From NCBI GenBank assembly GCA_947478845.1, contig CANJXC010000007.1:49939-113938 (forward strand): a DNA stretch of 64,000 bases, read 5' to 3'. A program made the position numbers and the translations under genes. The notes beneath the pieces are model-generated. The model saw only the letters and a program-made list of their open reading frames with translations, was not told the DNA's origin and searched no databases. This DNA comes from Spirochaetales bacterium (GTDB taxonomy: Bacteria > Spirochaetota > Spirochaetia > JABEVK01). Below, in pieces: positions 2,870 through 14,159 of this stretch. Within the stretch, counting starts at the first letter, position 1. Each line of letters starts with the position of its first letter.

Positions 2870-3089
2870 GGGCCGGGATTGTATCGGAAAGCACCGATGG
2901 ACGACAATGGCACCCATGAATGCCCTGTTCAGTGCTTGGGTCAACTTACGCAACTCGCTCGACTGGTGGCTCAGAAACTCGTTGACTTGGTCTCCCAGCG
3001 CTAGGGAACAGGCCGAAGAAAAAGGCGAAGCTGATGCCCGCGAAACTCACTTTATAGCCAACTATTTTTTGTTCTCCGCCCGTCAGCGT

Positions 3090-3710
3090 ATGACCAACTC
3101 ACGTTGGCAACGTAATTTGGCCGTGCTTGAGCGCTTGGAATCGGCCTCCCGTTCGCCAGCATTGGACAAGCTCTTGCGGCAGACCGGCCCCCTGAGAATC
3201 CTCGACATTGGCAGCAAGAACTTCGACTATGTGGATGCTTTAGCCGGCTTTTTTTCCCGTTGCCTCTCCCACAGGGACGTGCAGATCACAGGTCTGGAAA
3301 TTGACGCCCATCGCCGCTACACCGATTTACGCACGCGCCGTGCCTGGGCTGAGCACTACGTTTCGTTTGTGCCTTCGGCCCGCTACTTTGCTGCTGACCT
3401 GCTCAATCATACCGAAACCTACCATGCGATCACATGGTTCTTTCCCTTCTTGACGGAGTTTCCTTTGCTCAAGTGGGGCCTACCGTTGTCGTTGTTTCAG
3501 CCGGCCACGCTACTGGCCCACGCTTGGAGTTTGCTCTTGCCCGGAGGTGTGCTCATTCTGGTCAACCAAACCGACGCTGAGCTCGAAACCCAGTGCAAAC
3601 TTCTCGCGGAACTCGGAGCGCCGTTTGATCCAAGGCAAGGGCGGGTAACGGTTGCCTACAAAACTTCGGCTTTCATCTCATCGAATGAGAGGTTGACAAG
3701 GAATGGATAA
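3090..3710 (+). CDS. Hypothetical protein, possibly a degenerate class I SAM methyltransferase-like fold
   Basis: LRILDIGSKNF resembles MTase motif I and GGVLILV resembles post I. The start is uncertain; the ORF is open from 2862, overlapping the ABC-F start region. Confidence 0.3.
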   Translation: MTNSRWQRNLAVLERLESASRSPALDKLLRQTGPLRILDIGSKNFDYVDALAGFFSRCLSHRDVQITGLEIDAHRRYTDLRTRRAWAEHYVSFVPSARYFAADLLNHTETYHAITWFFPFLTEFPLLKWGLPLSLFQPATLLAHAWSLLLPGGVLILVNQTDAELETQCKLLAELGAPFDPRQGRVTVAYKTSAFISSNERLTRNG

Positions 3711-3801
3711 AGAACGTACTGGTCCACGGCTATTTAACCTGCTATTTATAGGAGTACGCTCACTGTGAGGCACGAGGAAGTTTAATAGAGGGAGAATCAC
3801 C

Positions 3802-4671
3802 ATGAAGTTTGGAATCTACTACGCGTATTGGGAGCAAGAATGGGTCGGCGACTTCAAGTATTACATCGAAAAGGCGGCCAAACTCGGCTTCGATATCCTT
3901 GAAATCGCAGCCCATCAAATCACAACCTACTCCGACAAGCAGATCGAAGAGATCCGTTCCGCGGCCAAGGCCAATAATGTCCTTCTAACGGCCGGAATCG
4001 GACCTACCGCCGACAAGAACCTCTCTTCAGCCGATCCCGCCATCCGCGAACGGGGCAAGAAGTTCTTCACAGAAACCCTGACCCAGATAGCCCGTCTCGA
4101 GGTGAGGGCCATTGGCGGCGCCCTCCATTCCTATTGGCCGGCAGACTACACTAAACCCGTCGACAAGATGGGTGACTGGCAGCGGGGTGCCGATGGGGTC
4201 AGGGAAATCTCAAAGTTCGCCGAAGAACTCGGAATCACGCTGAATATCGAGGTGCTCAACCGGTTTGAGAACTTCGTGCTCAATACCGCTGAAGAAGGTG
4301 TCGCCTTCGTAAGGCAGGTGGGTCGACCCAACGTTAAGGTCATGCTCGATACCTTTCATATGAACATTGAAGAAGACTCCATCGGCGGTGCGATACGTAC
4401 GGCCGGCCCGCTCTTGGGTCACCTCCACACGGGAGAGTGCAACCGCCGCGTCCCGGGTCAGGGCCGCATGCCGTGGCGCGAAATTGGAGAAGCACTGCGC
4501 GGCATCGGCTATCAGGGAAACGTCGTCATGGAACCCTTTGTTCGCTCAGGAGGGTCAGTCGGCAACGATATCCGAGTATGGCGCGACCTGAGCAACAAGG
4601 CCAGCGAGCAGAAACTAGACCGCGACGCGATGGAAAGTCTGCGGTTCTCCCGGTTCATGCTCGAAGGTTGA
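3802..4671 (+). CDS. Ketose 3-epimerase of the D-psicose (D-allulose)/D-tagatose 3-epimerase family (xylose-isomerase-like TIM barrel)
   Basis: Near-colinear similarity to Agrobacterium D-psicose 3-epimerase as I recall it (MKxGIYYxYWExEW, IEVLNRFE, MLDTFHMNIEED, GHLHTGExNRRVPGxGRMPW, MEPFV). All four metal-binding residues (Glu/Asp/His/Glu) are present. RBS GGAGAA upstream. Confidence 0.85.
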   Translation: MKFGIYYAYWEQEWVGDFKYYIEKAAKLGFDILEIAAHQITTYSDKQIEEIRSAAKANNVLLTAGIGPTADKNLSSADPAIRERGKKFFTETLTQIARLEVRAIGGALHSYWPADYTKPVDKMGDWQRGADGVREISKFAEELGITLNIEVLNRFENFVLNTAEEGVAFVRQVGRPNVKVMLDTFHMNIEEDSIGGAIRTAGPLLGHLHTGECNRRVPGQGRMPWREIGEALRGIGYQGNVVMEPFVRSGGSVGNDIRVWRDLSNKASEQKLDRDAMESLRFSRFMLEG

Positions 4672-5755
4672 TCCCGAAAGAGGAAGACTTGCGAACCCTG
4701 AGCTCCGCGGCAATGGTGAGGTTACGGGCCGGAAGCTCCGGATTGTCGACCCGCGAGAGCATGGCGCTCAGCGCTACTTCTCCGATTTCCCTGCAGGGTT
4801 GATGCATGGTCGTAAGGGGTACATGGGCCAGGCGAGCATATTTGAGGTCGTCAAAACCCGCTACCCGCACCTCTTCGGGAACCTTGAGTCCGAGCCCTTC
4901 CAGAGTGCTGATGAGGGTGACTGCGGTTTCGTCGTTGATACAAATAATGTCGTGGGCCCCGTTCTTGATCATTCGGGCTACAAACTCAACGTCGTGAGGC
5001 TTTCCCTGGTGTTCAAAGGCGCGACTGGGCTCGATTCCGGCCCGTTGGAGGGCCTCCCGATAACCGATCAGCCGCAGAGCATACGTGCCAGCCGTGTTGG
5101 GACGCCATAGAAAATCAACCCTCCGGGGCTGGTTTTCTAGGAAGTGATTGCAGAGAACCAACCCCGCCTGAACGTTGTCGATTCCAACCAAGTCGTGGGT
5201 GCTGCGCTCGGGGTAGGCCAGATAGTCGCTGTCCAGCAGGACAAGGGGAACACCGGCTCTCTCAAACATCGAAGCAATTCTCAGGTTTTTGTTCGACAAA
5301 CCTGGCTCCCGCTCAACCGGCTGCAGAAACACCCCGTCTACACCGCCCTCAATAAATCTCTGCGCGGTCTGGTAGAGGCGCTCTTCGGTGGTTTCGTCAA
5401 ACTCGCTCGGTATACTGCCCCATATGAGCGAGAAGTCGTACTCATGCGATAATTCAGCGATCCGGGTGCAGATGGGCTCAAAAATCTCGCCCCGGCCAAG
5501 CCCAGGCACAAAAAGGCCAAAAGTGCGCTGTTTGCCGCTCTTTTGGCTCCCAGGTGCCGTCAGATAAGTTCCCGAACCCACGATGCGCTCAATGAGGCCC
5601 ATGTCGCGCAGTTGGTCGAGAACCCGGCTGACGGTAGGACGGGAAACTCCGAATTGCTGCGAAAGTTCCCGTTCTGTGGGTAGTTTTTCGCCGAGCTTCC
5701 AAATACCCTGTTCCACCCGGCCCAAAAGTTCAGCAAAAATATCCTTGCTCTTCAT
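4655..5755 (-). CDS. AraR-type transcriptional regulator (GntR-family winged HTH fused to a LacI/GalR-like sugar-binding domain)
   Basis: N-terminal PTERELSQQFGVSRPTVSRVLDQLRDMGLI is GntR HTH-like. The C-terminus has a periplasmic-binding-protein fold (LacI-like). Start at MKSKDIF with a GGAGAG RBS. The 3' end overlaps the epimerase gene by 17 nt, convergently. Confidence 0.8.
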   Translation of the reverse strand: MKSKDIFAELLGRVEQGIWKLGEKLPTERELSQQFGVSRPTVSRVLDQLRDMGLIERIVGSGTYLTAPGSQKSGKQRTFGLFVPGLGRGEIFEPICTRIAELSHEYDFSLIWGSIPSEFDETTEERLYQTAQRFIEGGVDGVFLQPVEREPGLSNKNLRIASMFERAGVPLVLLDSDYLAYPERSTHDLVGIDNVQAGLVLCNHFLENQPRRVDFLWRPNTAGTYALRLIGYREALQRAGIEPSRAFEHQGKPHDVEFVARMIKNGAHDIICINDETAVTLISTLEGLGLKVPEEVRVAGFDDLKYARLAHVPLTTMHQPCREIGEVALSAMLSRVDNPELPARNLTIAAELRVRKSSSFGINLRA

Positions 5756-5778
5756 TCTCTCCCCCCAATTGGCAATGC

Positions 5779-5799
5779 AACTTACCAAAATGGTAAGTT
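5779..5799. promoter_or_regulatory. Operator-like perfect palindrome in the divergent regulator/ABC promoter region, plus repeated TACCAA/TTGGTA half-sites
   Basis: AACTTACCA-aaa-TGGTAAGTT is a 9-bp inverted repeat. Further CCAATTGG and CCAAAATTGGTA repeats lie at 5766-5780 and 5829-5845. A TTGACA -35-like box at 5841 sits upstream of the binding-protein gene. Confidence 0.35.
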
Positions 5800-5899
5800 T
5801 TTTACAAGCGAATAAGTTAACCAAAATTCCAAAATTGGTATTGACAGATTGTGATATTGGCCTGAACATCTGCTATACCAATTCGCCCAGGAGGCAAAT

Positions 5900-6916
5900 A
5901 TGTTTTCAAGAATGATGTCGCGTATCGCGCGGCTCACCGTTCTGTCTGTGTTGGTTTGTGGTCTCGTCGCGGCACCTTCGCTTTCTGCCCAGTCGATTCC
6001 CAAGGCAAAGATCAAGCAATTCAGCGTGATCTTTGTACCCAAACTCGTCGGAGTCCCGTGGTTCAATTCCATGACCAAGGGCTTTGAAGATTACTCCAAG
6101 GGGAGCAACATCAAGTACACCGTGAGCGGAGCGGCCAATACCGACCCCGCGGCTCAGGCCCGTTTGATTGAAGACGCCATCGCCAAGAAGCCCGATTGTA
6201 TTCTCGTGGTTCCCAACGATACTGCAGTCATCGAGCCTGCCATGAAGAAAGGCATGGCCGCCGGCATCCTCATGCTGACTTCGGAAGCATCGACCATCGT
6301 CAATGCCTATGCCGACATTGAGTTCTTCATTCTTGCCAAAGAAGGCAAAGACATGGCGGACATTTTTGTCAAGCACGCCGGAACCAAGGGTGGCTACGCC
6401 GTAATGGTCGGTGGTTTGACCAACCAGGGTCACAACGCCCGAGCCGATGCGGCTGTCGAATACCTGGCTAAGAACTACCCCGACCTGAAGCAGGTTACCA
6501 CCCGTTTGGAAGGTTCGGAAAACGTTCAGGAAGCCCATGACAAGACCCTGCAACTGATCACTGCTTACCCCGAATTGGTGGGTGTGCTGTATGTCGGTTC
6601 TGCCGGTCCTATCGGCGGCGCCCAGGCTGTTACCGAGAAGGGTGTGCAGAAGAGGGTGGCTATCGTCGGTTCTGCTGTTCCGAGCCAGGCCAAAAAGTAC
6701 CTTTTGGATGGCAGCCTCAAGGCCAGCTACATCGGCAACCCCTACCTGATCGGTAAGGACTCCGCCTACATCATCGAGCGCATGCTTTCCGGCGTGAAGC
6801 TGGAAGACGTCGGCAACCTGCCCCAGTTTGGTGCGCAGACGGTGAGCGGTCGTGTGATCACGTTCCACGCTGACGCCGAAGTTTCGGCCGCCAACGCGGA
6901 CTCGTTCGGGTTCTAG
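5900..6916 (+). CDS. Sugar ABC transporter periplasmic substrate-binding protein (ribose/allose RbsB/AlsB type)
   Basis: Signal peptide with SPase I site SLSA/QS. Type I periplasmic-binding-protein fold. RBS AGGAGG. Confidence 0.85.
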   Translation: MFSRMMSRIARLTVLSVLVCGLVAAPSLSAQSIPKAKIKQFSVIFVPKLVGVPWFNSMTKGFEDYSKGSNIKYTVSGAANTDPAAQARLIEDAIAKKPDCILVVPNDTAVIEPAMKKGMAAGILMLTSEASTIVNAYADIEFFILAKEGKDMADIFVKHAGTKGGYAVMVGGLTNQGHNARADAAVEYLAKNYPDLKQVTTRLEGSENVQEAHDKTLQLITAYPELVGVLYVGSAGPIGGAQAVTEKGVQKRVAIVGSAVPSQAKKYLLDGSLKASYIGNPYLIGKDSAYIIERMLSGVKLEDVGNLPQFGAQTVSGRVITFHADAEVSAANADSFGF

Positions 6917-6925
6917 TTTACTTCG

Positions 6926-6972
6926 GACGCCGGTAGGTGTGTACCGGCGTCTGTCTTGTTGTCGGTTTTTTC
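6926..6972 (+). terminator. Intrinsic terminator/attenuator directly after the binding-protein gene
   Basis: GACGCCGGTA-ggtgtg-TACCGGCGTC 10-bp stem followed by a U-rich tract (TGTCTTGTTGTCGGTTTTTT). Confidence 0.55.
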
Positions 6973-7015
6973 GTGTTCTTAATCCCATCTTCATGTTCTT
7001 AGGAAACCATCCACC

Positions 7016-8506
7016 ATGTCTGACTTCATCGCTATGCGTCATGTTACCAAGAATTACGCCGGCGTGCAGGCGCTCAAAGACATCGATTTTCAGCTAAAAC
7101 GGGGAGAAATACACTGTTTATGCGGTGAAAATGGTTCCGGAAAGTCCACGCTTATCAAAATCCTCTCTGGTGTTGTGAAGCCCGACGAGGGCAGTGAAAT
7201 CACCATAGACGGCCGTGTGTTTCCTCACCTGAGTGCTCATGAGGCCCTCGAACAGGGAGTGCGTGTCATTTACCAAGACTTGGCCCTGTTTCCCAATTTG
7301 ACTGTCAAAGAGAATATCGCATTCCAGTCATTTTCGGAAAAAGGCTCACCAATGGTGAGTTGGAACCAAGTGGAAAAGACAGCCCGGGGCGCAATGAGTT
7401 TGATTGGCCTCGACTTGGATCTTAACCGCCTGACCGGTACCTTGCCGATCGCACAACAGCAACTTGTCGAGATCACCCGTGCGCTCATCGGGGAGCCGAA
7501 GCTGTTGGTGCTCGACGAACCGACCGCTTCACTGACCCGCAAAGAGGTTAACGCGCTTTTTGAGGTGATCTTCCGACTAAAGTCCCGAGGTGTGACAACC
7601 ATGTTTGTCAGCCATAAGCTTAACGAAGTTTTCGAGATCGCCGAGCGTGTGACCGTGCTGCGGGATGGCGAGAGAATCGGTGAGTACGTCCCCTCTGAAA
7701 TTGACCACAAAAAATTGGTTTTTTTGATGACGGGCCGTAAGTACGAAAGCGCTCTTCCGTCACCAGTTGACCCCTTGGCCCCTAATCTCCTGGAGGTCAA
7801 GAATCTGACGCGAAACGGCGAGTTCACAGATCTTTCGTTCACCGTGAAGAAAGGGGAGATTGTGGGCATCACGGGACTTCTGGGCTCGGGACGCACTGAA
7901 TTGGCCTTGGCAATTTTTGGGATGACGGTGCCTGATTCGGGAAGCCTCCTCTTGGAAGGCAAAGCCATCAAACCCCGTTCCAACAGCGATGCCAAGAAAC
8001 TAGGAATCGGTTATGTTCCCGAGGACCGGTTGAGGCAGGGAGTGATTCAGGCCCAATCGATCCTCGATAATATGAGTCTCACCGTTCTCGAAAAACTCAA
8101 GACTACCCTAGGACTTTTGGACAAACAAAAGATGAAAACCGATGCGCAGACTTGGGTAAAAGACCTGCAAATCAAGATCCCTTCGCTCGATTCCTCGGTG
8201 AAGACGCTTTCGGGAGGAAACCAACAGAAGGTGGTACTTTCCAAGTGGTTGGCAACCAACCCCAAGCTCCTGATTCTCGACGAGCCTACCATCGGAATCG
8301 ATGTTTTGGCCAAGAACGGCGTCCACGATTTGGTAAAGAAATTGGCTACAAAAGGTATCGGCATTATCCTCATCTCCGACGAGATCCCTGAGGTACTGTC
8401 GAATTGCCATCGGGTGCTAGTGATGCAGAAAGGGCGGTTTGTTCATGAATTGGTGCCGGGTCCCGATGCCGAGCGAGATTTACTCGAGAACTTCAATCTT
8501 TCGTGA
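7016..8506 (+). CDS. Sugar ABC transporter ATP-binding protein (duplicated ABC domains, RbsA/AlsA type)
   Basis: GENGSGKST Walker A, LSGGNQQK signature and a second nucleotide-binding domain. 496 aa. Confidence 0.9.
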   Translation: MSDFIAMRHVTKNYAGVQALKDIDFQLKRGEIHCLCGENGSGKSTLIKILSGVVKPDEGSEITIDGRVFPHLSAHEALEQGVRVIYQDLALFPNLTVKENIAFQSFSEKGSPMVSWNQVEKTARGAMSLIGLDLDLNRLTGTLPIAQQQLVEITRALIGEPKLLVLDEPTASLTRKEVNALFEVIFRLKSRGVTTMFVSHKLNEVFEIAERVTVLRDGERIGEYVPSEIDHKKLVFLMTGRKYESALPSPVDPLAPNLLEVKNLTRNGEFTDLSFTVKKGEIVGITGLLGSGRTELALAIFGMTVPDSGSLLLEGKAIKPRSNSDAKKLGIGYVPEDRLRQGVIQAQSILDNMSLTVLEKLKTTLGLLDKQKMKTDAQTWVKDLQIKIPSLDSSVKTLSGGNQQKVVLSKWLATNPKLLILDEPTIGIDVLAKNGVHDLVKKLATKGIGIILISDEIPEVLSNCHRVLVMQKGRFVHELVPGPDAERDLLENFNLS

Positions 8507-8527
8507 GCAAACAGGGGTGGTAGCTGT

Positions 8528-9559
8528 ATGACAAACAAGAACCCCGGAGCCCAGCTTCGGTTGCAACGCTTCTTCGGACAAAATGAAACGATACTCCTCC
8601 TGGTGTTGCTCGCCATGGTGACGGCCATTACAGCGGTGAGTCCACGCTTCCTCGGGCCCGAAAACCTCTTCTCCATCCTCCTGAGTGCGTCGTACACAGG
8701 TATTTTCGCCATCGGCTTTTTGTTGGTCTTGGTTTCTGGCGGGCTGGATGTTTCCTTTACTGCGGTCGCTACGGTAGCTCAATATGCGATGGGAACCGTG
8801 CTTCTCGCCAATCCCGACATTTCACCTGCTTTGGCCCTGCTGATTCCACTTCTCGTTGGAATGGCCCTTGGCTCGCTCAATGCACTCTTGATCCACTACC
8901 TCAGTGCGCCACCTATCATCATCACCATTGCCAACCTGAACATCTTTTTTGGTCTGCTTCAATTCATCACAGGCGGCGAGTGGCTCAACGGCTTTCCTGA
9001 GTGGTTCGACCATTTTCCTCAAACCTATGTGCTTTCCTTTGAGAATGCAGATGGGGTTAAGTATGGGCTTTCCGTTATCGTGATGATTTGGCTCGCGGTG
9101 GCGGTGGTGGCCGGCGTTCTGATGCATTATTTCAAGGCTGGGCGCAAGTTGTACGCCATGGGCGGCAATCTCGAGGCTGCCCGACGAGCGGGAATCGATA
9201 TCCTTCGATACAGAATTTTTGCCTACGGTTTCTTGGGCTTCTGCGCCGGCCTTGGGGGAATGGTTCACACGCTCATCACCCAGACGGTGGTCCCCAATAC
9301 CTTGGTTGGACACGAGTTCGACGTCGTAGCCGCCGTTGTTCTTGGGGGAGCTAGCATTTTTGGTGGTTCAGGCACCGTGGTTGGAACCGTGCTCGGAGTT
9401 GGCCTGCTTGCGGTGCTGAGCAACGCTCTCACCATCATGAAGGTTCCTACTTACTGGCACGAGGTTTTTGTCGGTGCCATCGTCATCCTCAGCATAACTA
9501 TCACGACTCTTAGTGCCCTTGCCGCTCGCAATCGGGAGAAGAAATACCATGCTCAATAA
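8528..9559 (+). CDS. Sugar ABC transporter permease (RbsC/AlsC type)
   Basis: About 10 transmembrane segments. Branched-chain/ribose permease family features. Confidence 0.85.
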   Translation: MTNKNPGAQLRLQRFFGQNETILLLVLLAMVTAITAVSPRFLGPENLFSILLSASYTGIFAIGFLLVLVSGGLDVSFTAVATVAQYAMGTVLLANPDISPALALLIPLLVGMALGSLNALLIHYLSAPPIIITIANLNIFFGLLQFITGGEWLNGFPEWFDHFPQTYVLSFENADGVKYGLSVIVMIWLAVAVVAGVLMHYFKAGRKLYAMGGNLEAARRAGIDILRYRIFAYGFLGFCAGLGGMVHTLITQTVVPNTLVGHEFDVVAAVVLGGASIFGGSGTVVGTVLGVGLLAVLSNALTIMKVPTYWHEVFVGAIVILSITITTLSALAARNREKKYHAQ

Positions 9560-10592
9560 TCTGCTCGCAGCCTCCCGCGCCTGGGGAAAGCGCAACGCCG
9601 AGATGGCCGCCCTTCCGTTTCTGTTGGTGGGGGTTGTTCTTCTGCTATCTGTTGCGATTGAGATCACTTCCGAAGGAAACGTCCATTTTCTCTCTGTGGA
9701 AAACTTCGGTGCCATGGCCGCTCAGATTCCTGAACTGGGACTGCTTTCGCTGGCCATGATGGTGACCATGCTGACGGCGGGCATCAACTTGTCGATTATC
9801 AGTAGCGCCAACCTCGTGGGCGTTACCATGGCAATAACGATGCTGACTTTTGGCCCGGGCGCGGCCTCTGCCGGGCTCACCCTTCCCCTCATCGTGCTGA
9901 CCATTGTCGGTGGCCTCCTGTTCTCCGTGCTTTTGGGACTCTTTAACGGCCTTTTGATTGCCAAGCTCAAGATTACGCCCGTGCTGGCAACCTTGGGCAC
10001 TATGATACTGTACGAAGGTCTAACTCTCGCCATCACCAAAGGCTACGTGATTTCTGGCATGCCCGAAGAGTTCCTGGTCATCGCCTCCGGCGACGTTTTT
10101 GGAGTTCCCTATGCGTTGATCGTTTTTACCGTCGCTGCCGTAGTGATGGCCTATGTGCTTCAACGTAGGCCCTTTGGTCGACAGTTGTACATGCTTGGTT
10201 CCAATCAGACGGCCGCCAGTTTTTCCGCGGTGAATATCGACCGCGTGATTTTAAAAACCTATATGCTCTCGGGACTGCTCGTTGGTCTTGCAGCCATCAT
10301 TATGCTTTCCCGTTTTTCTTCCGCCAACGCCCGCCAAGGAACTTCGCTGCTTCTCGTAACCGTACTTATTGCCGTTCTCGGAGGCACAGATCCAGATGGT
10401 GGTTTTGGCAAGGTTTTGGGCTTGGTTATGGCACTGGTTATCATGCAGTGCATTACCAGTGGTCTCAACCTTTTGGGAATCAGCTCCTTCCTTACGTTGG
10501 GTCTTTGGGGCGCTTTGTTGATCGGAGTCATTGCTTACCGTTCTTACCGAGCCAAAAATCCGGGCAATCGCCCGAAGTCTGTTTCAGCATAA
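9549..10592 (+). CDS. Sugar ABC transporter permease (second RbsC-type subunit)
   Basis: The start ATG overlaps the upstream stop. Polytopic membrane protein, paralogous to the previous permease. Confidence 0.85.
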   Translation: MLNNLLAASRAWGKRNAEMAALPFLLVGVVLLLSVAIEITSEGNVHFLSVENFGAMAAQIPELGLLSLAMMVTMLTAGINLSIISSANLVGVTMAITMLTFGPGAASAGLTLPLIVLTIVGGLLFSVLLGLFNGLLIAKLKITPVLATLGTMILYEGLTLAITKGYVISGMPEEFLVIASGDVFGVPYALIVFTVAAVVMAYVLQRRPFGRQLYMLGSNQTAASFSAVNIDRVILKTYMLSGLLVGLAAIIMLSRFSSANARQGTSLLLVTVLIAVLGGTDPDGGFGKVLGLVMALVIMQCITSGLNLLGISSFLTLGLWGALLIGVIAYRSYRAKNPGNRPKSVSA

Positions 10593-10609
10593 CGAACAAG
10601 GAGAATTTT

Positions 10610-11185
10610 ATGTCTAGCCGATACAGGGAATTAACCAAAATCGTGGTAGAAGAGAACCGAAAAGTTCTCGAGGCGGTCTCCGAACACGAAGTCGCTCTTC
10701 TGATTGATGAAATTGAAAAGGCCAAGGTGATACAATTGTTCGCCATGGGCCGGATGACGGCCTCGATGCGTGGCTTTGCCATGCGGCTCAAGCACATGGG
10801 CCTCGACGCCTACGTGGTGTTCGACACCACAACCCCCGTGATTGGCAAGGGAGATCTGCTCATCGTGAACTGCGCCGTTACCGAAATCGACTTAGGAATC
10901 ATCCAGCGGGCGAAGAAGGCTGGGGCCCGCGTCGCCATCATCACCGCGCACCCAGAGTACGAGCAGGGAAAATACGCAGACCTGAAAGTTACCGTTCCCG
11001 GGCAGATTTTCGGCACGCCGCCAGAGATTGCGTCGGTTCAGCCCATGGCCTCTTTGCTGGAACAGGCACTTTTCCTTTTTGAGGATATTGTGGTAATGAT
11101 GCTGATCGAGAAGCGCAAGGTGTCGATGGAAGATATGCAAAAACGCCACACAAACCTGGAAGGAGTCATGGGTTCATTCGCCTAA
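10610..11185 (+). CDS. SIS-domain sugar-phosphate isomerase of the 6-phospho-3-hexuloisomerase (PHI/HxlB) family
   Basis: Strong resemblance to HxlB (GFAMRLKHMGL; VQPMASLLEQALFLFEDIVVMMLIEKRKVSMEDMQKRHTNLE). RBS AAGGAG. 191 aa. Confidence 0.8.
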   Translation: MSSRYRELTKIVVEENRKVLEAVSEHEVALLIDEIEKAKVIQLFAMGRMTASMRGFAMRLKHMGLDAYVVFDTTTPVIGKGDLLIVNCAVTEIDLGIIQRAKKAGARVAIITAHPEYEQGKYADLKVTVPGQIFGTPPEIASVQPMASLLEQALFLFEDIVVMMLIEKRKVSMEDMQKRHTNLEGVMGSFA

Positions 11186-11192
11186 GGCCTGC

Positions 11193-12593
11193 ATGAACCA
11201 CCTCGGCGTCGATTTGGGAACGGCCTCGCTTAAACTCCTTCTCGTGACTTCCGACGGAGCTGAACAAATCTGGTCTCAGCCGTATGCCGTGACTTCACCA
11301 AGGCCTGGCTTTGCCGAGACCGAACCTTCCGCCTGGCTGGTGGCCCTGCGAAAAGCCTCTGCGCAACTGCCGGCTGAACCGCTGGCCTCGGTAGGACTTT
11401 CGGGCCAAATGCACGGCATTGTTCCCTGCAGTTTCAAACGCGGTGCTCTCCATCCTGCCATCTTGTGGGCCGACCAACGCGGTAAAGACGTCCTGACTCG
11501 CCTCGGTGAGCTCGGACCGGAAAGTGTGCGCCGCGTGCGAAACTCTTGGGCCAGCGGAATGGCGGTAACCTCCATTCTATGGCTGCAGGAGAATTATCCT
11601 GCACTTTACGCTGAAACCGACGTTTTCCTCACGCCCAAGGACTATTTACGGTGGGTAATGACCGGAGAAGTGGGCACCGACCCTTCCGACGCCAGCGGAA
11701 CTCTGCTCTATGATTTGGCGCAGGGAGGCTGGATGACCGATCTGCTCGAGCGCATGGGCCTCGACCCGAGAAAGTTGCCAACAATCTTTGACAGTGCTTC
11801 CCTAGCGGGCACAGTGACTACCGAGGGCGCTCGCCAGACGGGCTTGCCCGAGGGTGTGGCTGTTGGGGTAGGGGCAGGGGATACTCCGGCCGCCATTTTT
11901 GGCTCAAACCTGCCCGTCGGCGATACCCTGCAAATCAGTATCGGCTCCGGCACCCAGGTCGTCCGTCTTCTGCCTAAATTGCCAGAGTTTAACCCCTCTC
12001 TCAACGTCTTCGAAAGCGTGAGAGCCGGTGTGTATTACCAGATGGCGGGAATGCTCAACGGAGGGGTTGCACTGGAATGGGTGCGCAAGACTGTCGGCTT
12101 GGACTGGTCTTCGTTTTACTCCAACATCAAGCAGAAAGAGGCGCCTCTCGACCTCGTATTTTTACCCTACCTGACGGGGGAACGGACTCCCTACCTGAAT
12201 CCAGACGCCCGTGCCTGCTGGGCGGGCCTCGGCCTTCACCATCAACCCAACGACCTGCTTCATTCGGCCCTCCTTGGTGTCGCTTGCTCGGTTCGCCTTG
12301 GTGTTCAGACTTTGGGGACAGGGGGAGTGATCCACTTCCGCCTTGTTGGGGGTAGTACCCGTTACGTGTTTTGGAACCAAATGCTGGCTAACGTGCTGCA
12401 GGTTCGCCTTAGTGTTTCCACCCAAGGTGATATTTCTGCCCGAGGGGCGGCTATGCTAGGTGCGGAGGCGGCGGGGCTTAAGTGGATTCCTCAACAAGAG
12501 TTCCAGACTTACGAGCCCCAACCTTGGCCCGGCATCGACGACTACTTCCGCCGCTTCCAAGACCTCTATGCACGCCTCTATAGCGATAAGTAG
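11193..12593 (+). CDS. FGGY-family carbohydrate kinase (xylulokinase-like)
   Basis: N-terminal GVDLGTASLK, GLSGQMHG and a C-terminal FGGY domain. 466 aa. Confidence 0.85.
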   Translation: MNHLGVDLGTASLKLLLVTSDGAEQIWSQPYAVTSPRPGFAETEPSAWLVALRKASAQLPAEPLASVGLSGQMHGIVPCSFKRGALHPAILWADQRGKDVLTRLGELGPESVRRVRNSWASGMAVTSILWLQENYPALYAETDVFLTPKDYLRWVMTGEVGTDPSDASGTLLYDLAQGGWMTDLLERMGLDPRKLPTIFDSASLAGTVTTEGARQTGLPEGVAVGVGAGDTPAAIFGSNLPVGDTLQISIGSGTQVVRLLPKLPEFNPSLNVFESVRAGVYYQMAGMLNGGVALEWVRKTVGLDWSSFYSNIKQKEAPLDLVFLPYLTGERTPYLNPDARACWAGLGLHHQPNDLLHSALLGVACSVRLGVQTLGTGGVIHFRLVGGSTRYVFWNQMLANVLQVRLSVSTQGDISARGAAMLGAEAAGLKWIPQQEFQTYEPQPWPGIDDYFRRFQDLYARLYSDK

Positions 12594-12737
12594 CAAACAA
12601 AGATCCCCGGCCCGAGATACCCTTAGTCTTTTTCGTCGGTCCAAGGGCGGAGTTTCGACTTATCCACGGGTGGCAGGTTCTTCCCCTTTTGGATGCCGAC
12701 GACTATGGTGGTCACGATGCCACCCACGAGCGTTAAA

Positions 12738-14159
12738 ATGACAACGACAAACCAGAACCCTGCTGACATACCTTCACAATACACCCAAAGTCTCTTTACG
12801 TCGTTGCCGCTAGGGGCTTCCCTTCTTGCTACGCTCAACCAGTTAGGCTACCTGACAATGACCCCCATACAGGCCCAGGCGCTGCCGCTGACTTTGGGTG
12901 GTCGGGACCTGTTGGGACAGGCCGCCACCGGGAGTGGGAAGACGGCGGTGTTTTCGCTGACTCTTCTTACGCGGGTGAACCCACGGTTCTTTGGTGTGCA
13001 AGCGTTGGTGCTTTGCCCTACCCGTGAACTGGCCGACCAGGTTGCTGCCGAAGTTCGCAAACTCGGCCGATCGGTGGCAAACCTCAAGGTGATTTCGCTC
13101 TGCGGAGGGGTGCCTGTGAAGAGCCAACTCGACAGTTTGGCCCACGGCGCCCATGTGGTTGTGGGAACACCTGGGCGCGTGCTCGACCACCTCGGCCGCA
13201 AAAGCCTGATCCTCGAAGGACTGCGGATACTTGTGCTCGACGAAGCCGACCGGATGCTCGACATGGGCTTCGCGGACGATATGGCCAAGGTTGCCCAAGA
13301 ATGCCCCCTAGACCGGCAGACGCTTTTGTTTTCGGCCACCATGCCTGCTCAGGTCGAGGACGTCGCCGGCCCTTTTCTCACGAATCCGTCGCGGGTGTAT
13401 ATTTCCGCTGAAGCCGATAAAACCTCAATTGAGCAGTTGTTCTTGGAGACCACCCGAGACGAAAAAGCGACCTTGCTGGCCGCGATTTTCGATTTTTACC
13501 GGCCAGAATCGACGCTGGTGTTTGTGAACACTAAGGTATCCGGGCGCGAGTTGACCGCAGAACTGGTACGGTTGGGGTTGTCCGCCCGTGACCTCTCGGG
13601 TGATCTCGAGCAACGGGAACGCGACGAAGTGATGGCTCTCTTCGCGAGCCGGTGCCTGCCCATCGTGGTGGCCACGGATGTGGCTTCCCGCGGGCTGGAT
13701 ATTGCAAAACTAGATCTAGTAGTGAATTACGAGCTGAGTCCGGACCCTGAGGTGCATGTTCATCGGGTGGGTCGCACAGGGAGGGCTGGTGAGCTTGGGC
13801 GCGCGGTCAGCTTGGTTGCCCCCCACGAAGTGACGCTGCTCCGACGGGTCGAAGAGTTGACCGGAGGCCGGTTCCCTTGGTCGCCGAAGGTGCCTGAAGT
13901 CTCTGGTGGTCAGCCGCAAGTTTCACGTTTTGTCATGTTTCGGTTCTATGATGGAAAAAAAGACAAACTGCGCCCTGCTGACGTTCTCGGCGCCTTCACA
14001 GCAGGACTCGGCCTCACCCGCGAGCAGGTGGGCACCATCAAGGTTACCGAATGGGGGACTTGGGTGGCGGTGGCTCGTGAGATGGCAGGTACCGTTGAGC
14101 AGGGCTTGCCCTCGTTAACGATCAAAGGAAAAGTCCGCAGGGCGGTGAGGGTGAGCTGA
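12738..14159 (+). CDS. dbpA: ATP-dependent RNA helicase DbpA (DEAD-box, 23S rRNA-specific)
   Basis: Q motif and GYLTMTPIQ, AATGSGKT, DEAD (VLDEADRMLDMGF), SAT, HRVGRTGRAG. The C-terminal RNA-binding domain matches DbpA (DGKKDKLRPADVLGAFTAGLGL...IKGK). The start is uncertain; an upstream ATG at 12693 is possible. Confidence 0.85.
   Translation: MTTTNQNPADIPSQYTQSLFTSLPLGASLLATLNQLGYLTMTPIQAQALPLTLGGRDLLGQAATGSGKTAVFSLTLLTRVNPRFFGVQALVLCPTRELADQVAAEVRKLGRSVANLKVISLCGGVPVKSQLDSLAHGAHVVVGTPGRVLDHLGRKSLILEGLRILVLDEADRMLDMGFADDMAKVAQECPLDRQTLLFSATMPAQVEDVAGPFLTNPSRVYISAEADKTSIEQLFLETTRDEKATLLAAIFDFYRPESTLVFVNTKVSGRELTAELVRLGLSARDLSGDLEQRERDEVMALFASRCLPIVVATDVASRGLDIAKLDLVVNYELSPDPEVHVHRVGRTGRAGELGRAVSLVAPHEVTLLRRVEELTGGRFPWSPKVPEVSGGQPQVSRFVMFRFYDGKKDKLRPADVLGAFTAGLGLTREQVGTIKVTEWGTWVAVAREMAGTVEQGLPSLTIKGKVRRAVRVS

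Follow-up and report, generated by a model that had tools for sequence, protein, structure and literature searches.

A candidate locus for uptake and catabolism of a free D-erythro-2-ketose in a Spirochaetales bacterium, with a PHI-like SIS protein of probable accessory role

The closest described relatives of the gene cluster analysed here, which occupies positions 3802-12593 of a 64,000-nucleotide stretch of contig CANJXC010000007.1 from a Spirochaetales bacterium (hereafter, the window), are loci for the use of D-allulose (D-psicose), D-ribulose or other rare sugars. The Agrobacterium psi locus, home of the first characterised D-psicose 3-epimerase (DPE), is governed by the LacI-type regulator PsiR, which responded to D-allulose alone among 12 sugars in a panel that included D-ribulose (PMC12748958). 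The D-ribulose locus Rbl of Citrobacter rodentium combines an ABC importer, an FGGY kinase and a SIS isomerase, the last of which is dispensable; AauA, the substrate-binding protein (SBP) of the related Aau system of enterohaemorrhagic Escherichia coli (EHEC), was crystallised with α-D-ribulofuranose (PDB 9I1M; dissociation constant ~2 μM), which it contacts through K37, W43, E118, H167, E196 and S223 (PMC12307932). Further comparisons are the E. coli als system (AlsBAC, AlsE, AlsK, RpiB) and the ribulose monophosphate (RuMP) pathway, with its HxlA and HxlB enzymes, respectively 3-hexulose-6-phosphate synthase (HPS) and 6-phospho-3-hexuloisomerase (PHI).

Listing of open reading frames (ORFs) and scans with hidden Markov models (HMMs) placed eight genes within the locus, all with strong family matches; as the original prediction from the window's sequence had proposed, a ketose 3-epimerase is clustered with an AraR-type regulator, an ABC importer, a PHI-like SIS protein and an FGGY kinase. 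We read the locus, at a probability of about 0.55, as a sugar-inducible system for the uptake and catabolism of a free D-erythro-2-ketose in its furanose form, with D-allulose as the most likely substrate, D-ribulose as a possible second one, and the SIS protein as an accessory. An AauA/Psi-type importer of the carbohydrate uptake transporter 2 (CUT2) class would bring in the unphosphorylated ketose, as its homology and six ligand residues suggest. The DPE would then invert C3, with presumed direction and substrate, so that D-allulose yields D-fructose, or D-ribulose yields D-xylulose; the XylB-like FGGY kinase would phosphorylate the resulting D-threo-ketose to fructose-6-phosphate or xylulose-5-phosphate. 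Gene architecture and palindromes suggest that a divergent AraR-type repressor may control the operon of importer, SIS and kinase genes. The SIS protein stands outside the minimal route; its gene and that of the regulator appear to derive from another, widespread module of SIS, vicinal oxygen chelate (VOC) and ABC importer genes.

The locus is a variation on known allulose and ribulose loci. It shares with Agrobacterium psi a DPE (67% identical), a kinase gene in the cluster, a CUT2 SBP that is of the AauA-like clade and keeps all six ligand residues, and a free ketohexose as likely substrate. The psi locus differs in its PsiR regulator and operator PsiO, neither of which is in the window, in a P-loop protein of the nucleoside/nucleotide-kinase family that takes the place of the FGGY kinase, in a second TIM-barrel gene and in having no SIS gene. 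Rbl and Aau possess a homologous transporter and the same layout of ABC importer, FGGY kinase and single-domain SIS protein (PMC12307932), so this combination does have a precedent. However, RblK belongs to the TIGR01315 pentulose kinases (the Duffyella copy scores 686 bits) and shares just 21% identity with the kinase of the window; RblI resembles KpsF and has a GxGxSG loop, Rbl-type SIS proteins matching the KpsF/GutQ models; and D-ribulose is phosphorylated directly, with no epimerase. Orthology of the window kinase and SIS protein to RblK and RblI was rejected on that kinase identity and on a SIS BLASTP E value of 14. The als system likewise uses a CUT2 importer for a rare hexose and ends in fructose-6-phosphate, but AlsB, 18% identical to AauA in the same alignment, lacks AauA-type ligand residues, and the phosphorylated sugar is epimerised by an enzyme of the ribulose-phosphate 3-epimerase (RPE) family after a ROK kinase, neither of which is present at the window locus. 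As for the RuMP pathway, the window SIS protein has the PHI fold, 30-39% identity to PHI-like proteins and several PHI residues, but it scores below the model cut-off, has lost the phosphate loops, carries motifs of its own and has no HPS within 64 kb. The expectation that the locus follows neither the alsK/alsE route nor the RuMP pathway was thus borne out: no RPE or HPS gene was found in the window, and its sole ROK gene, glucokinase-like, lies 13 kb from the locus. A psicose utilisation locus of Klebsiella (AlsE, ribokinase and a permease) was considered as a relative and proved unrelated. A literature search returned no relevant report of a DPE combined with a PHI, of an allulose cluster containing a SIS gene, or of a D-ribulose route by epimerase and xylulokinase.

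The epimerase (3802-4671, + strand) carries the clearest assignment. It exceeds the NCBIfam D-psicose 3-epimerase equivalog cut-off (NF051856; 448.7 bits against 300, full length, residues 1-287) and aligns without gaps to the Clostridium cellulolyticum DPE (PDB 3vnk; 439 bits over 288 residues, with the same residue numbering) and to the Agrobacterium tumefaciens enzyme (PDB 2hk0; 436 bits). The metal ligands (E150, D183, H209, E244) and the O1-O3 binding residues (E156, H186, R215) are intact, and the hydrophobic pocket, with Y6, W14, G65, A107, W112 and F246, is unchanged. Rhizobial DPEs are 65-69% identical, and orthologues occur in two of the public loci compared here, L110 (71%) and L005 (91%). 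The L-ribulose-5-phosphate 3-epimerase model reached 33 bits only. Judged by these matches, the TIM-barrel protein falls within the DPE family of 3-epimerases for free ketoses and is not a pentulose-phosphate epimerase; its predicted closeness to D-psicose 3-epimerases, four metal ligands included, stands. Enzymes of this family prefer D-allulose to D-fructose; D-ribulose and D-xylulose are turned over at ~8-10% of the allulose rate by the Flavonifractor plautii enzyme and are also accepted by the Agrobacterium DPE (PMC4965175).

The importer is encoded on the + strand by an SBP gene (5900-6916), a gene for a CUT2 ATPase with two fused nucleotide-binding domains (7016-8506) and two CUT2 permease genes (8528-9559 and 9549-10592). 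The best PDB matches of the SBP were a Klebsiella protein (3d02, 185.8 bits) and EHEC AauA with α-D-ribulose (9I1M, 180.3 bits), and its identity to AauA- and Rbl-type SBPs is 35-36%. The alignment shows each of the AauA ligand residues (K, W, E, H, E, S) to be conserved, and the same six are kept in the SBPs of L110, of Rbl-type loci, of the Agrobacterium DPE locus and of the SIS-VOC clusters; in the E. coli control SBPs LsrB, AlsB and RbsB, five of the six positions differ. Identity to AlsB is 18%, and the AlsB model gave 50.9 bits against a cut-off of 335. By sequence, the SBP belongs to an AauA/Rbl/Psi clade, with a predicted ligand class of D-erythro-2-ketofuranoses, and is not AlsB-like; the resemblance to AlsBAC that had been proposed is one of CUT2 type and does not extend to the binding protein. 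Pfam ABC_tran matched the ATPase twice (194 bits), the AraG, XylG and AlsA models gave 440-455 bits, all under their cut-offs, and BPD_transp_2 matched the permeases at 134 and 93.5 bits. A strong GC-rich hairpin (6924-6953, +; 12-bp stem with 8 GC pairs) stands between the SBP and ATPase genes and is possibly a partial terminator or attenuator, or a stabiliser, that sets the ratio of SBP to transporter.

D-Allulose and D-ribulose are both D-erythro-2-ketoses; a CH2OH on C5 is all that sets their furanose rings apart. At the Agrobacterium DPE locus (L023, on the Agrobacterium larrymoorei plasmid pAlCFBP5477), the published PsiR operator PsiO lies at 5662-5683, with one to two mismatches, between the LacI gene and the AauA-like SBP gene; since the SBP encoded there keeps the same six residues, the AauA/Rbl/Psi clade, on this comparison, serves D-allulose systems as well as D-ribulose systems. 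AauA, Rbl-type and SIS-VOC-type SBPs have an Arg three residues after the ligand-stacking Trp (R46 in AauA); the Agrobacterium (allulose) SBP has Ala at this position, and those of the window and of L110 have Ser. The difference might bear on the space available for the extra CH2OH of D-allulose.

The last gene of the locus (11193-12593, +) encodes an FGGY-family ketose kinase (FGGY_N PF00370, 151 bits; FGGY_C PF02782, 71 bits). Xylulokinase is by far its best model, at 315.1 bits on TIGR01312 (XylB), under the cut-off of 380.25; PRK15027 gave 197.7 bits against 912, and E. coli XylB (PDB 2itm) matched at 203.5 bits. The pentulose kinase model TIGR01315, on which the Rbl-type kinase scores 686 bits, gave 63.5 bits, its cut-off being 408.7. 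In L111 and L112, homologues of 55-56% identity adjoin glycyl-radical enzyme genes, and a 57% identical orthologue is the last gene of the L110 cluster; the window kinase clade (55-57% identity) thus occurs in more than one context. The L110 cluster runs in one direction from an M24 peptidase through the DPE (71%), a LacI regulator, the SBP (60%), the ATPase (64%) and the permeases (60% and 57%) to the FGGY kinase (57%), and no SIS gene was found in it. Because L110 does without a SIS gene, import, 3-epimerisation and phosphorylation look self-sufficient as a three-step route.

The same three steps would also serve a pathway confined to pentuloses, in which the epimerase converts D-ribulose to D-xylulose and the XylB-like kinase makes xylulose-5-phosphate, a third, epimerase-dependent route beside Aau/AraB and Rbl/RblK. 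We regard this as a substantial alternative, though the less probable one. The SBP retains all six α-D-ribulose contacts of AauA, the kinase sits nearest to xylulokinases and DPE-family enzymes do epimerise D-ribulose and D-xylulose; the SIS gene of Commensalibacter, moreover, lies among pentose and pentulose genes, namely araBAD and a FucA-like aldolase gene. Yet the epimerase, a DPE equivalog, has a pocket identical to that of enzymes ~10-fold better on D-allulose, the kinase does not reach the XylB cut-off, and regulation at Agrobacterium psi, the annotated DPE locus nearest to this one, is specific for allulose. It would moreover be simpler to phosphorylate D-ribulose directly, as Rbl does. 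D-Allulose, with D-ribulose as a possible second substrate, is thus the reading that we retain.

Between the second permease gene and the kinase gene, and preceded by a good Shine-Dalgarno sequence upstream of 10610, lies the gene for the 191-residue, single-domain, PHI-like SIS protein (10610-11185, +), a member of an uncharacterised subfamily. On the HxlB model TIGR03127 it scored 146.5 bits, under the cut-off of 160, against 212-230 bits for genuine HxlB proteins of related loci, and the Pfam SIS model did not match it. Its AlphaFold2 (AF2) model (pLDDT 90.7) was nonetheless PHI-like in fold: the top Foldseek matches were YckF (TM 0.81-0.86), AF1796 and MJ1247, with an overall TM range of 0.73-0.86. 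We aligned the window protein and six subfamily members with two HxlB proteins (that of L020, at 229.8 bits, and that of L006, assigned by similarity and an HPS neighbour) and two distant PHI-like proteins (L014, L015). The subfamily shares SVQPM, LEQ, H-x-NLE, R48, R59 and H62 with PHI. Throughout the subfamily, the loop GAGRSG is replaced by AMGRM[QT], and the loop GSGSGE[TS] by [NH]C[AG]V--T, two residues shorter; invariant motifs of its own are C88, HPE, VPGQIFG and a C-terminal EG-x4-FA tail. In SIS enzymes, both of these Ser/Thr-rich loops hold the sugar phosphate, for example through S347, S349 and T352 of GlmS. A tblastn search of the 64-kb window found no HPS partner, as had been stated before. 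Since the PHI score is below cut-off, HPS is missing and both loops are lost, a novel ketose phosphate is a doubtful substrate for this protein.

The original prediction had suggested such a substrate. The kinase would act first, for instance to give D-allulose-6-phosphate, and the SIS protein would then lead to fructose-6-phosphate by way of a 2,3-enediol or 3-keto intermediate, the DPE serving as a parallel entry. Such chemistry is sensible, since allulose-6-phosphate and fructose-6-phosphate have the 2,3-enediol of hexulose-6-phosphate in common. The PHI fold and PHI-shared residues are present, no AlsE/RPE gene was found in the window, and the SIS and FGGY genes are adjacent, translationally tight and kept together in deletion strains. 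Nevertheless, this order of steps now seems unlikely: the canonical phosphate loops are gone, the HxlB cut-off is missed, and L110 has the DPE, the importer and the FGGY kinase without any SIS gene. Most SIS clusters, furthermore, are kinase-less or carry kinases from unrelated families, with a fructokinase equivalog among them, and some SIS members are orphans in unrelated neighbourhoods.

These contexts emerged from 100 fetched loci of the SIS subfamily, of which 68 remained after dereplication, 49 of these with at least 1.5 kb visible downstream and 24 well flanked. The proteins are 60-99% identical across the 100 loci, which span several phyla; by source-record names, the carriers are Spirochaetota, Anaeromyxobacter/Myxococcota, Planctomycetota, Ktedonobacteraceae, Cedecea and Commensalibacter. 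No subfamily member was found in E. coli genomes or plasmids, only ordinary PHIs of less than 40% identity. A CUT2 SBP gene is near the SIS gene in 42 of the 49 loci, and a 156-residue Glyoxalase_4 (VOC) gene directly follows it in 27. The commonest operon runs SIS-VOC-SBP-ATPase-permease-permease, often with a divergent AraR-type regulator, and SIS is the first gene in most. Among the well-flanked loci, 19 of 24 have an ABC importer and seven have any kinase at all. Kinases found near SIS genes across all fetched loci are of the window-type FGGY, 530-residue FGGY, PfkB, P-loop and ROK kinds. In Cedecea and in one metagenome contig, a ROK kinase is translationally coupled to the SIS-VOC-ABC operon, and the Cedecea enzyme scores 477 bits on the Mak equivalog model for fructokinase, above its cut-off of 443, which points to a free hexose as the product at that locus. 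Minimal clusters of SIS and ABC genes exist, as do orphan SIS genes in unrelated neighbourhoods. Read together, such contexts misfit a protein that needs a dedicated kinase for its substrate.

With this module, found in Spirochaetota, Anaeromyxobacter, Planctomycetota and Cedecea colo, the window shares the SIS subfamily (62-79% identity), the AraR-type regulator (37-44%) and an importer of the AauA clade. It differs in that the module has the 156-residue VOC gene after SIS, which the window lacks, an SBP only 33-38% identical to that of the window, and a kinase that is absent or of another family (530-residue FGGY, ROK fructokinase or PfkB). A strict alternation of VOC and DPE genes beside SIS was considered and rejected: the 24 well-flanked loci comprise nine with VOC only, three with DPE only, three with both and nine with neither. 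In the last group, some loci have TIM-barrel or VOC genes that are divergent; TIM barrels resembling DPE turn up repeatedly near SIS.

Several individual loci merit description. Examples of the SIS-VOC-ABC operon are L016:10001-17424, L001:10001-16612, L003:10001-15941 and L022:10001-15843, among many more; that of Cedecea colo has its Mak-type fructokinase gene last. The VOC protein of the module has weak similarity to methylmalonyl-CoA epimerase; among PDB entries, 3gm5 matches it best. In another Spirochaetota lineage, BREX genes (BrxL, PglZ) lie directly downstream of a SIS-VOC-ABC-FGGY operon (L016:17524-20573; also L017-L019). In Anaeromyxobacter-like loci (L006:16766-18848, L009, L010, L033, L036 and L052), the SIS-ABC genes are followed by a DPE-like gene, with ~66% identity to that of L016, and by an HxlA/HxlB-like pair; these HxlA/HxlB pairs, judged genuine, are separate genes downstream of SIS. 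At L020:16731-19577, PfkB, HxlB, HxlA and an RPE/AlsE-like gene occupy the opposite strand, HxlA and HxlB both exceeding their NCBIfam cut-offs. In Commensalibacter oyaizuii (L002:7086-16335), SIS lies beside a DPE/IolO-like TIM-barrel gene, a PfkB kinase gene and a FucA-like class II aldolase gene, in a region lacking an ABC importer and directly adjoining an L-arabinose cluster of araBAD type; such gene content hints at a ketose-1-phosphate aldolase route.

For the window SIS protein, the loop alignment and these contexts indicate that its role is most probably an auxiliary isomerisation of an unphosphorylated ketose. A bolder form of this proposal, which we put forward tentatively because the phosphate loops are lost and 42 of the 49 dereplicated loci place SIS beside an AauA-type importer, is that the subfamily comprises the first SIS-fold enzymes to act on unphosphorylated sugars. 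They would isomerise free D-allulose or D-ribulose, or epimerise them by way of the 2,3-enediol. With its VOC partner, the SIS protein would form a kinase-independent funnel of two enzymes from rare to ordinary ketoses, ahead of phosphorylation, the DPE replacing VOC in the window.

The protein might instead be non-metabolic, either speeding the opening of the ring or the interconversion of anomers or ring forms of the imported ketofuranose, in the manner of RbsD in the rbs operon, or acting as a sugar-binding accessory or regulatory protein. Its place as first gene in most SIS-VOC-ABC operons, the minimal SIS and ABC clusters and the very strong conservation of 60-99% across phyla agree with such a role, and SIS domains act as sensors in RpiR-type regulators, which were among the fold matches. 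The SIS gene of the analogous Rbl locus, too, is dispensable for growth on D-ribulose (PMC12307932). On balance, we hold a non-metabolic function to be very unlikely, as the residues that the subfamily has in common with catalytic PHIs are invariant and the protein has no DNA-binding domain. We also know of no precedent for a mutarotase with the SIS fold. An auxiliary isomerase of a free ketose thus remains the preferred role.

The separate affinities of the genes suggest how the locus was assembled. In L005, a Spirochaetales metagenome-assembled genome and the closest genome to the window, the full window architecture is conserved. Encoded there are an M24 peptidase, the DPE, a LacI protein 48% identical to that of L110, a major facilitator superfamily (MFS) protein, the AraR-type regulator and the importer as well as SIS and FGGY. 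The window regulator and SIS protein are 44% and 78% identical to their L016 counterparts, which are encoded by neighbouring genes. Because of the identities to L110, L005 and L016, the DPE, importer and kinase of the window can be called L110-type, and the window looks like a mosaic of these genes with a regulator and SIS gene from a SIS-VOC-type module. Contigs identical or near-identical to the window are metagenome assemblies, and the Ga01149xx samples are presumably from lakes.

A 6.7-kb segment of the locus (3762-10482), comprising the DPE, regulator, SBP, ATPase and first permease genes and most of the second permease gene, is strain-variable. Three contigs with 98-99% DNA identity to the window (L025, L106, L107) lack it, position 3761 being joined to 10483 at a 4-bp repeat, GCTC (3758-3761 and 10483-10486). 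A 54-residue remnant of permease 2 precedes the intact SIS and FGGY genes in these strains, and we take the event to be a deletion there, and not an insertion in the window, because of this remnant. The deletion sets the DPE promoter region before the permease remnant, SIS and FGGY. An independent deletion in L076 and L081 (~81-86% DNA identity) fuses DPE codon ~95 to SIS codon ~62; L076:106-2292 and L081:2677-4489 correspond to window 3788-4085 joined to 10793 onward. At the level of protein hits, these two loci resembled a DPE-SIS-FGGY operon, a candidate that the DNA alignment ruled out by revealing them as deletion derivatives. Given two independent deletions, the locus is accessory and has been lost repeatedly; its presumed conservation extends to the whole cluster in L005 but fails among near-identical strains.

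The spans of the regulator and permease genes agree with the gene calls of public contig L105, which is 100% identical to the window; the longest-ORF N-termini are too long for the regulator, permease 2 and the SIS protein. The genes from SBP to kinase lie on one strand with tight spacing and, by this arrangement, are one operon, divergent from the regulator gene (4655-5755, −). The DPE gene forms a transcription unit by itself and converges on the regulator gene, which it overlaps by 17 bp at the 3′ ends. The regulator, of 366 residues in the L105 call, matched Pfam GntR (PF00392, 63.9 bits, residues 41-102) and Peripla_BP_3 (PF13377, 86.5 bits, residues 241-396; both in the numbering of the long ORF), and has by these domains the AraR architecture: a GntR winged helix-turn-helix joined to a sugar-binding domain of LacI/periplasmic-binding-protein type. 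Its orthologues in SIS-VOC clusters (37-44% identity) are divergent from the SIS gene.

The 144-bp region between the regulator and SBP genes holds candidate operator sites (5779-5883), read from the sequence: a perfect 9+3+9 palindrome, AACTTACCA-AAA-TGGTAAGTT, at 5779-5799, and an inverted pair, AATTGGTAT (5833-5841) and ATACCAATT (5875-5883), on either side of a TTGACA. L005 has both kinds of element too, with TGGTA/TACCA at the same places. It is plausible that the AraR-type protein controls the ABC-SIS-kinase operon through such sites. No similar palindrome or inverted site was found upstream of the DPE gene, an operator common to the DPE and ABC operon upstream regions was sought and rejected, and a promoter consensus scan gave nothing usable. 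The divergent regulation proposed for the cluster as a whole accordingly fits the operon but not the DPE gene, which is convergent and shares no operator with it.

Several points weigh against D-allulose as the main substrate and against an accessory SIS protein. All functional assignments made here rest on homology and context. The sequence of the SBP does not discriminate between D-allulose and D-ribulose; the kinase is most xylulokinase-like and thereby favours the pentulose branch; and we know of no fructokinase in the FGGY family. The SIS protein has R48, R54, R59 and H62 in common with true PHIs, and loss of the Ser/Thr loops is no proof that phosphate goes unbound. The SIS and FGGY genes are translationally tight and are both left in place by the 6.7-kb deletion, so the two could be a pair that works independently of the DPE. 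The DPE and operon promoters have no operator in common, so that the two may not be co-induced.

The flanks are unrelated to the sugar locus. On one side, directly upstream, an ORF of 267 residues at 2907-3710, called as a gene in L105, L106 and L107, has no Pfam or NCBIfam match; on the other lies a DbpA helicase gene (12693-14159). No RPE, VOC or second PHI gene was found in the 64-kb window. The window's ROK gene (320 residues; 199 bits on ROK_glcA_fam, under that model's cut-off) stands with genes for a polyphosphate kinase (706 residues) and a Ppx/GppA phosphatase (509 residues) at 22385-27002 on the − strand, a block that could suggest a polyphosphate-linked sugar kinase.

D-Allulose now serves as a sweetener in industry, and recent work has identified D-ribulose as a nutrient in the gut for which pathogens compete; the use of either sugar by environmental bacteria is barely charted. 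The importer clade shared by AauA, Rbl and Psi occurs with kinases of at least four unrelated families and with isomerases or epimerases of two or three unrelated folds, and the logic of epimerising first and phosphorylating later occurs in loci assigned to several phyla. The regulators, binding proteins and kinases, if responsive to allulose or ribulose, may find use in biosensors and rare-sugar bioprocessing. A PHI-like protein without phosphate loops, together with its usual VOC partner, is a candidate for new sugar chemistry, and Cedecea colo and Commensalibacter oyaizuii are culturable carriers of the SIS subfamily. If its members do act on free ketoses, this would be new chemistry for the SIS fold.

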